A stretch of DNA of 51,845 nt, taken from IMG/VR virus record IMGVR_UViG_3300035670_013246, positions 1-51,845 of that record, one strand, 5' to 3'. Numbering within the stretch: the first letter of the stretch is position 1; every line of letters begins with the position of its first letter. The stretch comes from a virus. Taxonomy: Duplodnaviria > Caudoviricetes. The position numbers and the translations under genes are program-made. A model generated the notes under the pieces. It was not told the DNA's origin, made no database searches, and saw only the letters and a program-made list of their open reading frames with translations. This document shows positions 11,755 through 17,135 of the stretch, piece after piece.

Positions 11755-12138
11755 TCAGGCGTGGAGCTCGAAGGCCTCGGCCTTGCGAACGATTCGAACT
11801 TGGGCGGTGCGGCGCTCTGGCGCGCGGCGGTCTCGGCGCATGGGGTCGCTGTCGTTGATCACCGCATGCATGGCGATGAGGCAGGCGAGGGCGATGCAGA
11901 GCGGGCTGATGAGCTGTTGGCGCATGGCCTTAGTGACCGCCTCGATGCGCCGGCCGGCTTCCAGCTTGAACAGCGCTGCCTCGATCCGGTTGGCCACGGT
12001 GCCCGGGCTGACCGCCATCTGGCGGGCGATTTCCTTCGTAGTGAGGCCTTGAGCCACCCACAGCAGTGCTTCGAGCTCACGGGGAGCCAGCGCCTTGCCG
12101 AGCTGGCCAATCCATGAGCCGCAAGTGATCGTTTCCAT
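11755..12138 (-). CDS. LuxR-type HTH transcriptional regulator
   Basis: LAPRELEALLWVAQGLTTKEIARQMAVSPGTVANRIEAALFKL; GAGGA RBS. Confidence 0.88.
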   Translation of the reverse strand: METITCGSWIGQLGKALAPRELEALLWVAQGLTTKEIARQMAVSPGTVANRIEAALFKLEAGRRIEAVTKAMRQQLISPLCIALACLIAMHAVINDSDPMRRDRRAPERRTAQVRIVRKAEAFELHA

Positions 12139-12152
12139 GATTGTCCTCAGCA

Positions 12153-12471
12153 ACCGCATTGGTCAGGCGCCAAGCGCGGGTGACCAGACCCACCGTGAAG
12201 GTGGCCTGGCGCCTGCCAATGCGGTCGTATGTGAAGGGAAGGGGTGCAGGCGGTGAGCGCTACCTCACATGCATCTGGTCTGGCCGGGTAGGCCCCGGAT
12301 TCGCCTGCGTGTACGTCGATTAATCTTTACTGCGGTGAGCCTTAACTTGGATAAGGCTTACGGTGATGCGCTTTAAACTGGTGAAAACTGCATCGGGGTG
12401 TGATCTGCATGACGTTTGTCGCCCATTGCTCTCGCGCTGGGTGACGGTACTCAGATCACACACCGATGCAG
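12153..12471 (-). ncRNA. Strongly structured non-coding segment of the PL transcript
   Basis: Stems 12153-12172/12207-12225 and 12388-12407/12452-12471 (19/20 complementary), plus smaller hairpins. Confidence 0.45.
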
Positions 12472-12731: not shown

Positions 12732-13002
12732 CTCTACATGCTCCGCTATCGGTTGATTTCCCGCCTGGCCCTGTCGCCAAGGCCAGTCAGTGAAATCTGT
12801 TGTCCGCACCATGCGCGGCGCCGCGGTATCCCCACCTGGCCGGGTCACACATTTCGTGTTCGGTGTTCTTCCCGGCTGGCTTGCATGGTTAGGCGTCCCT
12901 CAATGCCTGAGGTCCGGCAGCTATCCAGAGGCTGCGTGGTCGACGACTTAGCTTGTCCCGACCCAGGTAATGGCCTGGGTGCGTCGAGGTGGTCACGTCT
13001 GG

Positions 13003-13016
13003 TTGTGTAAAGAGCG
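13003..13016 (-). promoter_or_regulatory. boxA-like antitermination element CGCTCTTTACACAA
   Basis: Resembles lambda/rrn boxA, about 45 nt into the predicted PL transcript. Confidence 0.6.
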
Positions 13017-13068
13017 GTGGCCGGTGAGGGCCTCGGCAGTCCCTGGTGAGTGGCTGCGTGTTGAGGCA

Positions 13069-13097
13069 AATATCACGCATCGTGTTTTTTATGTCAA
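13069..13097 (-). promoter_or_regulatory. PL-like sigma70 promoter
   Basis: TTGACA (13097-13092), 17-bp spacer, GATATT (13074-13069). Confidence 0.85.
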
Positions 13098-13177
13098 CAC
13101 AATGTGTGATTTATTTTGCCTGAGGTTGTGTTGGGGATTTTCCCTACGAGGCGGGTTCACGTTTCACGAGGCGTGAT
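13072..13177. promoter_or_regulatory. OL operators (WWCAC-N5-GTGWW)
   Basis: ATCACGCATCGTGTT 13072-13086, AACACAATGTGTGAT 13096-13110, TTCACGAGGCGTGAT 13163-13177; the same motif occurs between cI and cro. Confidence 0.8.
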
Positions 13178-13195
13178 GTAAGCTCATTGCAATAG

Positions 13196-13211
13196 CTGGA
13201 TGGATATACAG
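13196..13211. promoter_or_regulatory. LexA (SOS) box
   Basis: CTGGATGGATATACAG = CTG-N10-CAG, immediately before the RBS of the 13227 gene. Confidence 0.7.
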
Positions 13212-13226
13212 TAAAGGAGATAGCTT

Positions 13227-13553
13227 ATGTCCAAGCAGAAGAAGACGGCACCACAAGGACGCCAAGAGATGAGCGGGGTAGAGCGGCTCGGGCTGCGGAT
13301 TTCGTCGATGATCAATCACCCCATTGCACAGTCTCAGCGGTGGGTGACAATCCATCGCCTGGACACGGATGGAGACATGGAGTGGGAGGAGGTGATGGGG
13401 CTGTTAACCGAAACGCCAGAGCTAGACCTGACTTTCAACGACGACGAGAGCGTGACGGTTCGGTGGGAGCCGCAGAGCGCCGAGGATCGCGACGACCTGG
13501 TCGTGGAGAAGGACTGGGAGGAGGAGGTGGTGGAGGAAGAGGCGCCTTTCTGA
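13227..13553 (+). CDS. DUF1654-family protein
   Basis: ERLGLRISSMINHPIAQ.QRWVTIHRLDTDGD.EWEEV pattern; AAGGAG RBS. Confidence 0.75.
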   Translation: MSKQKKTAPQGRQEMSGVERLGLRISSMINHPIAQSQRWVTIHRLDTDGDMEWEEVMGLLTETPELDLTFNDDESVTVRWEPQSAEDRDDLVVEKDWEEEVVEEEAPF

Positions 13554-13574
13554 TCGTCTCTAGAGATCGTAATA

Positions 13575-13590
13575 CTGGTTGGATGTACAG
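13575..13590. promoter_or_regulatory. Second LexA-like box
   Basis: CTGGTTGGATGTACAG (CTG-N10-CAG), followed by TTGACA at 13601-13606. Confidence 0.5.
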
Positions 13591-13778
13591 CCTTGCTGCC
13601 TTGACAAAAAATATTTTTGATAAAACGCAGCGAAACCACTGTCAAGACGATACGGTTGAGGATATAAGACGTGCGTGTGAGCGCGTGAGATTGCTTGCAC
13701 AGAACGAAGCATGTCCGTGAAGCCGCAGGAAACTAGGCCAAGATCGGCCTAAGCTACAGACTTAAGGAGAAGGCTCAC

Positions 13779-13961
13779 ATGCTGGAGATAGCTATGGCAC
13801 ACACTAAACCAGGGGCAATTCGTCCAAACGCGAAAAATGGAAACGTGAGCGCTGTGGTCAGTAGAAGAAGCTATTCTGCCCACACGAAGCAGGTTAACAA
13901 CGCGTTCTTGATTATATTTGCGCAATACGAACGTGCCTTTGAAGAATTGGCGAAAGTTTGA
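13779..13961 (+). CDS. Putative Doc antitoxin peptide (alternative start 13794)
   Basis: Small ORF 1 bp upstream of doc. Its C-terminus QYERAFEELAKV resembles the neutralising tail of Doc-associated antitoxins. Both ATGs have GGAG RBSs. Confidence 0.7.
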   Translation: MLEIAMAHTKPGAIRPNAKNGNVSAVVSRRSYSAHTKQVNNAFLIIFAQYERAFEELAKV

Positions 13962-13962
13962 T

Positions 13963-14448
13963 ATGGCTGGATCTGCAAATGTAATTCAATGGCTAAGTGA
14001 ATCAGACATAGCGTCGCTCAATCATAATTTGATTGATGCTCAAACTCCGATGGAGCCAGTGGGGGTCCTGAATCTTTCAGGGCTCTCATCCGCTCAATAT
14101 CGAGCTATTCAGTATCAAAATTACGCTGGCGTCAGCGATATTTTTGTACTGGGTGCAGTTTTTTCCGAAGCGTTGGTCCAAAATCATCCATTTTTTAATG
14201 CTAATAAAAGAACTGCGGCTGCGGCCGTGATGGTGTTTTTGCTAATTAATGGAGTGATGCTTAAGGCGCCATGGGAGCAAGTGGTTGAGATGTTTGAGGG
14301 GCTTGCCAAGCACACTTTTGACATTGATGATTTCTCCTGCTGGCTTAAGCACTGGAGTGTAAAGTTTGACGTTTCTCAGCTCGACGAGCTGGCTGCTGAC
14401 GCGTATTACAATAACGAAACACTCAAATCTAAATTTTCAAAGCTCTAA
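13963..14448 (+). CDS. Doc/Fic-family toxin 1
   Basis: NHPFFNANKRTA Doc-type motif followed by FLLING. Confidence 0.9.
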   Translation: MAGSANVIQWLSESDIASLNHNLIDAQTPMEPVGVLNLSGLSSAQYRAIQYQNYAGVSDIFVLGAVFSEALVQNHPFFNANKRTAAAAVMVFLLINGVMLKAPWEQVVEMFEGLAKHTFDIDDFSCWLKHWSVKFDVSQLDELAADAYYNNETLKSKFSKL

Positions 14449-14466
14449 AGCTTTTCCGAGGGGAAG

Positions 14467-15195
14467 ATGGACAGGGAGTTGGTAGAAAGTATCCACCTGT
14501 ATTTGGTTGATCACTTTGCGGATTCGGATGACCCTTTAGAACCCTCTGGAGTTAAGGACTACAATCTGCTTGAATCAGCATGCGCCAGACCTTTTCAAAC
14601 AGTTCATGGCAGAGATGCCTATGAAACGGAGTACGAAAAGGGGGCCGCGATCTTCCATGGGATCATCGCAAATCATTGCTTTCATAACGGTAATAAGCGA
14701 ACCGCTCTCCTGAGCGCGCTATATTATCTAGGTGAAAACAATATTTGGGTTGATCGCTGCAATGATGACGATATGTTTGAGTTTACTCGGCAAATTGCAG
14801 CTCATGAAATAGCAGAAAAGCGTGAAGATGAAATTTCAGTAATAGTCGACTGGCTTCTTCGGAATTCACGAAAAATCATGAAATCCGACAAGTATCTTTC
14901 TTTCAGTGATTTGCGAGAAAAACTGGGAAGGTTTGACTTTGAGCTCTCGGAGCGGAACGGATTAGTGGATGTCCTCAAGGAAGGGGAAATCGTTACAAGG
15001 ATTTTAAAGAAGGGTAAACACGGACGGGAAGAATATGATCCTGTCTATGTGGCAGATCTCCGGAAGCGTCTTCAGTTGACCGTTGACTATGGTGTTGACT
15101 CTGGCCGATTCTATGGGCAAAAGGGTGTTTCAGAAGAGCTGAATGAATTTATGCACATCCGCGGCGCAGTTTTTCGGAGACTGGCAACGGCCTGA
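14467..15195 (+). CDS. Doc/Fic-family protein 2 with ~105-aa C-terminal extension
   Basis: GVKDYNLLESACARP and NHCFHNGNKRTA; GAGGGG RBS. Confidence 0.9.
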   Translation: MDRELVESIHLYLVDHFADSDDPLEPSGVKDYNLLESACARPFQTVHGRDAYETEYEKGAAIFHGIIANHCFHNGNKRTALLSALYYLGENNIWVDRCNDDDMFEFTRQIAAHEIAEKREDEISVIVDWLLRNSRKIMKSDKYLSFSDLREKLGRFDFELSERNGLVDVLKEGEIVTRILKKGKHGREEYDPVYVADLRKRLQLTVDYGVDSGRFYGQKGVSEELNEFMHIRGAVFRRLATA

Positions 15196-15346
15196 CTCTT
15201 CTTGGATTTCCGGCGTTCCGCAGAGTGGGCGCTCCCCTTGACTCACTCTTCGCAGCCAAACTATCACATCAAGTGAGCATTCCACACCAGCAGAACCCGG
15301 ACCTAGATGTAGGCACCTTCCCGTCGAAACTTCGCATCTGCCGGAT

Positions 15347-15571
15347 CTATTCCTTTGCCCGAATGATCCGCCCCGCCTTCACCTCATCCCCATACCCTAC
15401 CAACCGATCGGCAAGCTCATGCAGCTTCCCGACACGCTTCATCGCCTCCAGGAACTGGTCTTCCTCACCGCCTTGAGCCTTGTGGAAGATCTCCAGTGCG
15501 GCGCTTTCCAAGGCAAAAGCAGCATCCTTCAGGTCTCGGCGCAGCTGTTGGTTAGGCTTGGTTAGGGGCAT
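15347..15571 (-). CDS. Hypothetical helical protein
   Basis: 74-aa ORF MPLTKPNQQLRRDLK with GAGG RBS, downstream of cI. Confidence 0.7.
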   Translation of the reverse strand: MPLTKPNQQLRRDLKDAAFALESAALEIFHKAQGGEEDQFLEAMKRVGKLHELADRLVGYGDEVKAGRIIRAKE

Positions 15572-15585
15572 GGGAAGGCCTCAGT

Positions 15586-15918
15586 CTATCGGCAAGCTTC
15601 TGCGCCGACGTAATCGGCAATCGAACCACTCACAATGGGTCCCATTCGGGGATCAGGCTGAGACGCCTTCATTTGCTCCAGGGTTTCACCGCTGCCGAGG
15701 TACTTCACTGTGCGATCTGCGCAGTTGTACAGGCGTCGAGAATAGGACGTGCCACTCGATCCGACGCGCTTCGTCGTGATCGTACGCTCATTGCCAGAGG
15801 TATCCCGGGCCAAGATCGTATAGGCAGCCTTGGGGTCGGATGGCACGTGTAGCGTTGCGGCCACAGAAACCGCAGGAATCAAAGCAAAGCCAAATACAGC
15901 CAAAATCAGTCGCGACAT
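15586..15918 (-). CDS. Exported protein downstream of cI
   Basis: Signal peptide MSRLILAVFGFALIPAVSVA, two Cys, AAGGA RBS. Confidence 0.75.
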   Translation of the reverse strand: MSRLILAVFGFALIPAVSVAATLHVPSDPKAAYTILARDTSGNERTITTKRVGSSGTSYSRRLYNCADRTVKYLGSGETLEQMKASQPDPRMGPIVSGSIADYVGAEACR

Positions 15919-15999
15919 ATAGTTTCCTTGCTAATGGAGCCAACAATTAAAGCTGCCAGCTCGCCAAATCCTTGCCGATAATCCCCGCTCGCGGATGAT

Positions 16000-16806
16000 T
16001 CACACCAGGTGCGCATTCCACACCAGCAGCACTCGGGCCTGGATGTAGGTCTCATCAACTCGGATGTCCTCAGGCGGATGATTGGTGTTGTCCGAAATCA
16101 TCTTGAAGTGGTTGCGGCCCTTCTTCTGCAGACGCTTGATGTACTGATGACCCTGATGGGAGAAGTAGTAGATCCCGTCGCCCACGAACTCACGGATGCT
16201 GATGTCAACGACCAACGGGTCGCGGCTCTTGATGGTCGGGGCCATGGACTGACCGACACCCGTAATGAGCTTCAGGTGGAAGTGCTCTTTGAACTCGACC
16301 CCCATCTCTCGCAGGTGAGTAGGGCTGACGCGGATGTCCTGCAGCATTTCAGGGAAGTCGTGAGCTACTTCGCCATCGCCCATTGCTCCGCGCACGTCGT
16401 AGTGAGCAATCCACACCTCATCGCCCACGAGGCCTGGGCGAACGAAGTTAGCCGCGACGGCACTGCTGGCGCTCGGCTCCTCAGCCGCAGCAAGGAGGCG
16501 CTGACGGGCCTCTTCCGGAATGCCTTTGCCGCTCTTTGCGAGCATCTGCCTGACAAGATCAGTCGTACTCCGGGCTGGCGCCGAAACCTCGGTCACTGCC
16601 GCAGAGTTCAGGAGTAGCTCGGATTGGTCGACTCCAAGGGCAGCTGCCATAGCGGCAATATCCGCCAGCGTTGGCTCTCGCGTACCGGCTTCATAGTTTC
16701 CGACGCGTGACTGCGATTTCCAGCCGCAAGCATCTGCCAGCTGGGCCTGGGACATTCCCGTCGCTTTTCTCAAGCGCTTAATGCGCTGGCTCAGTGATTC
16801 ATTCAT
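16000..16806 (-). CDS. CI-like repressor (XRE HTH + S24 autopeptidase)
   Basis: N-terminal HTH SQAQLADACGWKSQSRVGNYEAGTREP; catalytic GQSM and IKRL. Confidence 0.93.
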   Translation of the reverse strand: MNESLSQRIKRLRKATGMSQAQLADACGWKSQSRVGNYEAGTREPTLADIAAMAAALGVDQSELLLNSAAVTEVSAPARSTTDLVRQMLAKSGKGIPEEARQRLLAAAEEPSASSAVAANFVRPGLVGDEVWIAHYDVRGAMGDGEVAHDFPEMLQDIRVSPTHLREMGVEFKEHFHLKLITGVGQSMAPTIKSRDPLVVDISIREFVGDGIYYFSHQGHQYIKRLQKKGRNHFKMISDNTNHPPEDIRVDETYIQARVLLVWNAHLV

Positions 16807-16884: not shown

Positions 16885-16910
16885 GAGTGCTAGTCATTGA
16901 GGAACCCCGA

Positions 16911-17135
16911 ATGAACAACGTTCGCAAGATCCGGGTAGCTGCGGGGATTAGCCAAGCCCGGCTATGCCGGGAGCTCCGCTGGAACCAGTCGCGTCTGGCC
17001 AACTACGAGGCCGGGCGACGGTGTGTCGGCCTGGATGCGGCCCGGAAGATTGTCACTGCGCTGAACGGGCTAGGCGCCGAGTGCAGCCTTGACGATGTCT
17101 TCCCGCCAACGGCTCGCGACCCAGAAGCAGCCTGA
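16911..17135 (+). CDS. Cro-like HTH regulator
   Basis: ISQARLCRELRWNQSRLANYEAGRR; divergent from cI; GAGGA RBS. Confidence 0.88.
   Translation: MNNVRKIRVAAGISQARLCRELRWNQSRLANYEAGRRCVGLDAARKIVTALNGLGAECSLDDVFPPTARDPEAA

Follow-up and report, generated by a model that had tools for sequence, protein, structure and literature searches.

In the provirus IMGVR_UViG_3300035670_013246 of the IMG/VR collection, a stretch of 51,845 nucleotides which was analyzed in full (the window), three adjacent genes of the immunity region encode a peptide of 55-60 amino acids (aa) and two Doc proteins, Doc1 and Doc2, and on balance this trio probably combines two toxin modules of the Doc-kinase type, each held in check in its own way. 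The first module would be a bicistronic toxin-antitoxin pair of the phd-doc kind, made of the peptide and Doc1, in which the antitoxin is reduced to a neutralizing peptide devoid of a DNA-binding domain. The second would be Doc2 alone, a self-contained protein in which a Doc domain is followed by a HicA-like fold that looks catalytically dead and then by a C-terminal helix folded back over the NKR loop of the catalytic motif. Doc kinases belong to the textbook toxins and, to our knowledge, only the two-gene phd-doc form has been studied among them. The locus is a candidate for phage defense or prophage maintenance.

The trio had been described in the original prediction as tight, co-oriented, and AT-rich, and all of this was borne out. 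The three genes lie on the + strand (Table 1), with gaps of 1 bp (13962) between the peptide gene and Doc1 and of 18 bp (14449-14466) between Doc1 and Doc2, and an AAGGAG box is found 8 nt 5' of the peptide gene. At 14001-15000, the guanine-cytosine (GC) content is 0.443, whereas almost all of the remaining 1-kb intervals of the 51.8-kb provirus have 0.55-0.66, and because of this drop the trio has the look of acquired, AT-rich cargo. The ending of the peptide and the lengths and motifs of both Docs, as first listed, agree with the open reading frames (ORFs) and with the family scores. Both proteins are above the curated cut-off of TIGR01550 (86.0 bits for Doc1 and 48.2 bits for Doc2, the cut-off being 38.65) and above the Pfam Fic cut-off of 24 (35.3 and 50.8, respectively), and both keep the Doc-type motif HxFx(D/N)(A/G)NKR in the versions given in Table 1; by motif and hidden Markov model (HMM), the two Doc domains are intact, as had been claimed. 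The Lys of this motif turns a Fic AMP-transferase into an EF-Tu kinase, according to the review PMC7180214.

The Peptide and Doc1

A Doc1-type gene was found directly 3' of the peptide gene in all 19 loci recovered by seeding with the peptide only, and the pair relocates as a unit where the long Doc, i.e., the relative of Doc2, lies elsewhere (loci L040, L101, and L136). In the P. aeruginosa phages Sirocco and LPPA56, the pair sits beside the integrase with no long Doc, and the small gene is annotated there as hypothetical. A single-protein locus search with Doc1 returned near-identical phages only. Doc1 matches phrog_577, a "Doc-like toxin" (E 7.3e-33), and its AlphaFold2 (AF2) model, of pLDDT 78.7, superposes on Doc of phage P1 (3kh2_C) with Z 17.4 and a root-mean-square deviation (rmsd) of 2.0 over 122/123 aligned residues. 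We did not read a cis-acting tail into the C-terminal extension of Doc1 (residues 137-161), given its low model confidence, its lack of conservation, and the fact that class III Fic alignments including the extension score below the core-only ones.

The peptide ORF is a real gene, as shown by its conservation across 13 diverged sequences and by its match to phrog_2208 (E 1.8e-8; function not annotated), the sole family match obtained. The family is about 55 aa long; its start, MGHAL or MSAL, corresponds to the second ATG of the ORF in the window (13794), and in its C-terminus, ...A..E.A.EEL..., the residues A, E, A, and EEL are invariant across the 13 sequences. No match of the peptide was obtained in Pfam, NCBIfam, or PADLOC at E≤0.1, nor in Pfam at E≤10, and in these three collections it showed neither membership of the Phd/YefM family nor an N-terminal DNA-binding domain, for which, judging by its 55-60 aa, it is too small. 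Neutralization of Doc at the active site requires no more than two C-terminal helices (Phd-C), which are modular (Ernits et al., 2023; PMC10440598), and single-domain antitoxins made only of the neutralizing element exist (PMC10440598). By analogy, the peptide would be a minimal trans-acting antitoxin for Doc1, with its C-terminal helix (...YERAFEELAKV) plugging the active-site groove of Doc1 in trans.

The likeness to the Phd-Doc system of phage P1 extends to the Doc motif, TIGR01550 membership, the P1 Doc fold of both Docs, the small gene directly 5' of Doc1, and carriage by a phage. The locus is unlike that system in that the peptide is outside the Phd/YefM family, small, and without a DNA-binding domain, in that a second Doc follows, and in that Doc2 has 106 further residues. 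The pairing of PanA_Phd-C with DocD6 (PMC10440598) offers a second parallel, since there too short C-terminal helices neutralize Doc at the active site in a modular manner; the putative neutralizer is here free-standing (the peptide) or fused to the toxin (Doc2), and not fused to Panacea.

Doc2 and Its Predicted C-Terminal Tail

Doc2 was modeled by AF2 with pLDDT 85 and pTM 0.66 as three parts (Table 1), in which the Doc domain is followed by a HicA-like domain, a floppy linker (218-221), and two short helices (223-239). Whole HicA chains match the fold of residues 140-217 (1whz_A, Z 7.1, 68/70 aligned; 6hpb_A, Z 7.1, 57/57; 5yrz_D, Z 6.0; 6g26_E, Z 6.0; 4p78_D, Z 5.8). The region is unlike HicA toxins in being fused behind a Doc domain and in its sequence: residues 137-242 gave no Pfam match, HicA_toxin included, even at E 10, and the C-terminal half gave no usable match or model in the protein atlas. 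HicA toxins carry a conserved catalytic His, and no invariant His was found in the HicA-like region of Doc2 in alignments of 18 and 29 sequences. The domain would be a non-catalytic sensor or adaptor. At full length, Doc2 matches phrog_18015 (E 1.4e-67; function not annotated).

Two independent lines, superposition and docking, put the C-terminal helix of Doc2, by prediction, on its own active site. Full-length class III Fic chains align over residues 1..238 of the Doc2 model, up to their own residue 188, with Z 8.4-9.5 (e.g., NmFic 5cgl_A, Z 9.5; H. pylori 2f6s_A, Z 8.9; E. faecalis 6ep5_B, Z 8.7; Mycoplasma 8idv_C, Z 8.4), and NmFic chains in which the inhibitory helix is absent or mutated (3se5_A and 3sn9_A) align only over residues 1..136-139, with Z 7.9-8.0. 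Prediction of a complex between residues 1-136 and 206-242 gave ipSAE scores of 0.72, 0.72, and 0.68, against 0.06, 0.02, and 0.00 for three controls. The runs agree in at least 96% of contacts with a partner pLDDT of at least 62, and the predicted contacts join tail residues 235-239 to K77, R78, L81, L82, and residues 100-108, i.e., to the last residues of the catalytic motif and the helix that follows it. The Doc2 tail and the C-terminal helix of class III Fic proteins (NmFic, EfFic, and Mycoplasma Fic) can be superposed, and the tail has a predicted contact to the catalytic loop. The differences from that class are the Doc-type kinase motif in place of GNGR, the HicA-like domain inserted between core and tail, and the motif of the helix itself: the class III inhibitory helix has (S/T)xxxE(G/N), which is found neither in the Doc2 tail, reading ...GVSEELNEFMHIRGAVFRRLATA, nor in the family consensus.

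An ending of the form (R/K)-L-A-(K/R)-x-COOH is near-universal in the long-Doc family. A profile of the C-terminal half recovered 712 representative clusters (50% identity) at E≤1e-3 and 524 at ≤1e-10, and its position was always the end of the protein. Ten of the 150 listed proteins with this module were sampled: in all 7 of at least 351 aa the module is immediately preceded by a Fic/Doc domain, and the other three are one 201-aa truncated Fic and two short proteins belonging to no family. Since the sampled long proteins all place a Fic/Doc domain before the module, it is Doc-specific, which fits a cis regulator. A large class of relatives of ~350-440 aa (P0147, P0150, P0156, P0168, P0174, P0184, and P0206) has an extra N-terminal region of ~85-170 aa, without a family, before the Doc domain and carries the same C-terminal module.

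From these predicted folds and the predicted docking, we infer a mechanism in which proteolysis, or a trigger that binds to the HicA-like domain, would free the Doc2 tail and so make the kinase active. Freed Doc1 or Doc2 would then phosphorylate EF-Tu or another GTPase-like target, and translation would stop. The peptide and the tail of the Doc2 family share the ending Y-x3-L-x2-L-A-x2-COOH, and what we claim from this is a shared working principle. Common descent of the two is not claimed, the profile similarity being not significant.

Spread and Co-Carriage of the Two Modules

We then surveyed the relatives of Doc2, of which 148 were found across Proteobacteria and beyond, nearly all of 241-249 aa and named only "death-on-curing family toxin." The long Doc is rare, with 35 relatives in 2.9 million viral contigs, 95 in a scan of 185,579 species genomes, and 5 in 5426 E. 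coli genomes. It is a solitary cargo in Vibrio filamentous phages (53.6% identity) and in an integrated inovirus of the same 5/5426 E. coli genomes. Examples of these are an inovirus of Vibrio cyclitrophicus (L139, 6616-7348) and an E. coli inovirus beside hipBA (L142, 5001-5735), and the Vibrio record annotates the gene in two pieces. In a census of neighbors, all ORFs within 1.2 kb of a full-length Doc2 relative were clustered over 77 loci (1389 ORFs). Neither a second Doc nor the peptide was present in 66 of the 77, and, once the close Pseudomonas relatives are set aside, only a further Doc gene (11 loci) and the peptide (7 loci) recurred as neighbors.

Further arrangements were seen in single loci or distant relatives. 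In Achromobacter aegrifaciens, one of the 77 loci, an otherwise solitary long Doc has, 160 bp to its 5' side, a gene (L006, 3637-3837) for a Fic antitoxin of the VbhA family (PF18495, E 3.5e-10), the product of which may be an alternative trans-inhibitor of the long Doc. Distant long-Doc paralogues (28-31% identity to Doc2), each with a ...RLA.. tail, occur as tandem pairs (L042, 4007-5610; L062, 2272-3933; L063, 3896-5545; L066, 3998-5709). In Brachymonas sp. (L022, 4001-6042), a long Doc matches residues 1-189 and then, ~1.26 kb on, residues 170-240, much as a gene split by an insertion would.

Among the 19 peptide-seeded loci, a long Doc is present in six (L120, L121, L122, L128, L136, and L133, which is cut at the contig end), and none was found in the other 13, with flanks of ~2-3 kb and some shorter. 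When Doc1 was collapsed at 90% identity, 4 of the 11 peptide-seeded lineages had a long Doc within 3 kb, at a distance of 0-390 bp from the peptide-Doc1 pair, and on addition of the Doc2-seeded loci and two GenBank phages the count became 6 of 13 lineages. The order peptide-Doc1-Doc2 is that of the Pseudomonas clade, where it is kept while Doc1 drops to 68% and Doc2 to 75% identity, and it was seen in L003, L083-L086, and L133. Doc2 precedes the pair in L040; the two are convergent and abutting in L101 and L128, and convergent and 390 bp apart in L136. This makes four arrangements in all, and three gene orders among the four co-carrying lineages. The trio is a recurrent neighborhood, and the doubt voiced with the original prediction, that the two Docs might never co-occur elsewhere and be stacked by chance, is answered by the four co-carrying lineages. 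On a FastTree phylogeny of 82 long Docs, association with the peptide needs at least 3 changes against a shuffled mean of 7.8, and 0 of 500 shuffles were as low. L040 was left unlabelled on this tree although it has the peptide, as the peptide of the window does not reach it by tblastn, and the 3 changes are for this reason a lower bound.

Conceivably, two unrelated accessory genes could have come to occupy one variable slot with no selection for both. Each module is found alone many times, their order and orientation vary between lineages, and toxin genes do accumulate in variable prophage slots. We nevertheless consider such stacking highly improbable, because the long-Doc family is rare and yet lies 0-390 bp from the pair in 4 of 11 lineages, because the association is found at no fewer than three places on the long-Doc tree, and because distant long Docs also occur as the tandem pairs listed above. 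We favor the explanation that the modules are mechanistically independent and yet co-carried far above chance, with the linkage reflecting a selective benefit of having two triggers for effectors of one kind, for phage exclusion and/or prophage retention.

The original prediction went further, in proposing one antitoxin for two effectors, such that a single peptide neutralizes both Docs and its loss fires both at once. The association of the peptide with a Doc1-type gene at every one of the 19 loci, of which 13 have no long Doc in their flanks, the solitary state of the long Doc in 66 of 77 loci, the predicted occupation of the Doc2 groove by its own tail, and the lack of significant hhalign similarity between peptide and tail all speak against this proposal, which we regard as quite unlikely. 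In its favor are the close packing of the co-oriented genes in an operon that has no terminator-like site separating them, the trio order kept despite the divergence of Doc1 and Doc2 to 68% and 75% identity, and the ending shared by the peptide and the Doc2-family tail, in the register of which the best hhalign placement falls. In addition, the tail of the trio clade is off the family consensus, so that the Doc2 groove might accept the peptide.

A coupled circuit, in which peptide-Doc1 and the self-inhibited long Doc act as one two-input or amplifying switch, is in our estimate unlikely. Inhibitors with the shared L-A-(K/R)-x ending and the same kind of groove could be exchangeable, and depletion of the peptide or phage-triggered displacement of the Doc2 tail would redistribute them; alternatively, one kinase would phosphorylate the restraint of the other. 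Such a circuit would explain the pairing in 4 of 11 lineages in three gene orders as well as the tandem long Docs.

Genomic Setting and Control

The trio lies between the leftward early genes and cI and is transcribed toward cI, i.e., convergently (Table 1). The nearest relatives of Doc2 carry Pseudomonas names, and the trio would be foreign, AT-rich cargo that a lambdoid Pseudomonas prophage carries in its immunity region, possibly under the control of LexA-like boxes. A DNA-level search with 13600-15300 against phage and plasmid collections gave no match.

Table 1. Coordinates of the trio, the parts of Doc2, and neighboring features in the window.
Feature	Position	Strand	Description
Peptide gene	13779-13961	+	ORF of 60 aa; 55 aa if the second ATG (13794) is used; ends YERAFEELAKV
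Doc1	13963-14448	+	161 aa; catalytic motif HPFFNANKR at 14185-14211
Doc2	14467-15195	+	242 aa; catalytic motif HCFHNGNKR at 14674-14700
Doc2 residues 1-136	14467-14874	+	Doc kinase domain; TIGR01550; against P1 Doc 3dd7_A, Z 15.0, rmsd 1.9, 119 aligned
Doc2 residues 140-217	14884-15117	+	HicA-like (double-stranded RNA-binding-domain-like) fold, alpha-beta-beta-beta-alpha; structure comparison of the predicted model
Doc2 residues 222-242 and stop	15130-15195	+	C-terminal helices ending ...FRRLATA; predicted cis-inhibitory tail
Leftward early genes	left of 12850	-	Single-stranded DNA-binding protein (SSB), GerE/LuxR-type regulator, and others
LexA-like box 1	13196-13211		CTGG-N8-ACAG; 16 nt before the DUF1654 start codon
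DUF1654 gene	13227-13553	+	108 aa; Pfam DUF1654, E 1.1e-24; phrog_2707; 5' of the trio, same strand
LexA-like box 2	13575-13590		CTGG-N8-ACAG; ~200 nt before the peptide gene, just 5' of a TTGACA hexamer
Small ORF 3' of cI	15347-15571	-	On the cI strand; phrog_6388
Small ORF 3' of cI	15586-15918	-	On the cI strand; phrog_13843
Repressor gene (cI)	16000-16806	-	S24/helix-turn-helix (HTH) repressor; Pfam
cro-like gene	16887-17135	+	Followed by an O-like replication gene

The slot had been likened to that of lambda rexAB, and the analogy holds in part. In both, the genes lie at a comparable place on the map, flanked by the repressor gene and the leftward early operon. Lambda rexAB is co-transcribed with the repressor; the trio and cI occupy opposite strands, so that the trio lies outside the cI transcript. 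By strand and position, the counterparts of the repressor-cotranscribed genes are the two small ORFs at 15347-15918 and not the Doc trio; one encodes a 110-aa protein with a signal-peptide-like N-terminus (phrog_13843) and the other a 74-aa protein (phrog_6388). On the 5' side, the DUF1654 gene precedes the trio in five Pseudomonas-type loci (L003 and L083-L086) and was not seen in L040, L101, and L136, and it probably belongs to the phage backbone and not to the toxin module. In the leftward early operon, a GerE/LuxR-type HTH regulator (11755-12159, - strand; E 1.1e-12) stands where an antiterminator might be expected.

A scan of 12900-16100 for promoters and terminators yielded sites no more often than in shuffled sequences (3 vs. 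2.5 and 6 vs. 3.0) and no usable promoter for the trio. Because the peptide antitoxin, by its size, would not bind DNA, control from outside, such as by LexA, is plausible. The two LexA-like boxes in the window are identical at 14 of 16 positions. At the position of box 2, L083 has CTGG-N8-ACAG, L003 has two perfect CTGT-N8-ACAG boxes, and L086 has none; the pattern class is not enriched in the window (7 found vs. 4.5 expected). These putative boxes hint at SOS control rather than the expression in the lysogen that the original prediction put forward together with a candidate role in abortive infection.

The same architecture could, with this kind of control, serve prophage retention or an SOS-linked growth arrest, i.e., an addiction or induction checkpoint like P1 phd-doc, rather than defense. 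P1 Doc stabilizes lysogeny (PMC7180214), LexA-like boxes lie upstream in the window and in L083 with two perfect ones in L003, an antitoxin devoid of a DNA-binding domain must have its control from outside the pair, and chronic filamentous phages carry the long Doc. Nevertheless, an integrated prophage is not lost as a plasmid is, peptide-Doc1 pairs and long Docs lie at typical accessory-gene sites near integrases and immunity regions, and there are weak partial matches to PADLOC defense candidates. We rate this role as unlikely, though not strikingly so.

Several observations weigh against the composite of two separately restrained modules. The Z values of the HicA-like match are middling (5.8-7.1). 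The ipSAE mark, which was attained for 58 of 80 solved complexes and for 2 of 110 mismatched pairs, is only roughly calibrated for the tail, as the test cut one polypeptide in two and used an 18-row custom alignment; moreover, solved class III Fic structures exist, so that the docking pass may partly reflect likeness to them. The tail of the trio clade ends in RLATA or RLAST, against RLAK(I/T) in the family, and due to this departure from the consensus the cis control could be altered in this clade. Comparison of the peptide with the whole of Doc2 by hhalign was not significant (probability 0.4%), and with the C-terminal half it gave a probability of 1.2% and P 0.045, the sole placement being in the end-to-end register. 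Two wholly independent modules would not account for their joint presence in 4 of 11 lineages, which gives scope for a real coupling. The LexA-like boxes, for their part, speak against simple constitutive expression in the lysogen. A hint of transcription, in favor of the composite, comes from contigs of RNA libraries: a 1050-nt contig of X16 (94% identical) spans 13704-14752 and bridges the peptide and Doc1 to the first part of Doc2, pieces from X17 lie over 13599-14789, and X18 covers 13505-13755. These are also the evidence for expression in the lysogen, and, being contigs, they denote presence in an RNA library and not a transcript, with DNA carry-over possible. The parts of the window left uncovered by X16-X18 are no evidence of silence, and X15 covers everything and may be DNA. 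One X17 contig joins 14789 back to 14471 (319 back) inside Doc2, possibly through an assembly artifact or because it stems from a rearranged relative.

Comparison with Described Systems

As foreseen in the original prediction, the trio did not correspond to a system named in PADLOC-DB v2, which gave only partial Fic-domain matches, to the candidates PDC-S23 (best E 2.3e-11, over Doc2 33-129), PDC-S05, and PDC-M59B, and none for the peptide. SoFic is a Fic-fold effector in phage defense with a small antitoxin partner, AS1 (PMC12249575), and is alike in these respects; the trio differs from it in having no match to the SoFic model in PADLOC at E≤0.1 and in its Doc-type chemistry. Doc2 also recalls CapRel(SJ46), a single phage-borne polypeptide with an N-terminal translation-targeting toxin and a C-terminal autoinhibitory region (a concept also cited in PMC10865869), and the likeness is one of working principle only, with a toxSAS fold in CapRel and a Fic/Doc fold in Doc2. 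The main text of the HicA-context survey PMC10865869 has no mention of Doc or Fic, and its supplementary domain tables could list such genes. In the literature searched, we found no description of a protein with the Doc, HicA-like, and tail architecture, or of the trio, which supplementary tables (e.g., the hotspots of PMC9122126) could list.

Implications

If the two modules are as we propose, they extend Doc biology beyond phd-doc in three ways. The peptide would define a minimal antitoxin family that is little more than a neutralizing helix. The large Doc family borne by phages and inoviruses (712 clusters) appears to be a single-chain toxin-antitoxin with a HicA-like insert, reminiscent in architecture of CapRel-type immune sensors. 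Thirdly, both Doc forms have a non-random tendency to travel together. Were a phage cue to release the cis-inhibitory tail, a Fic-fold kinase would join the small set of one-protein immune switches, and the sensing of infection by switches of this sort could be studied in Doc2 as a simple system. In case the two Docs are coupled, the locus would present a new circuit logic for toxin-antitoxin modules.

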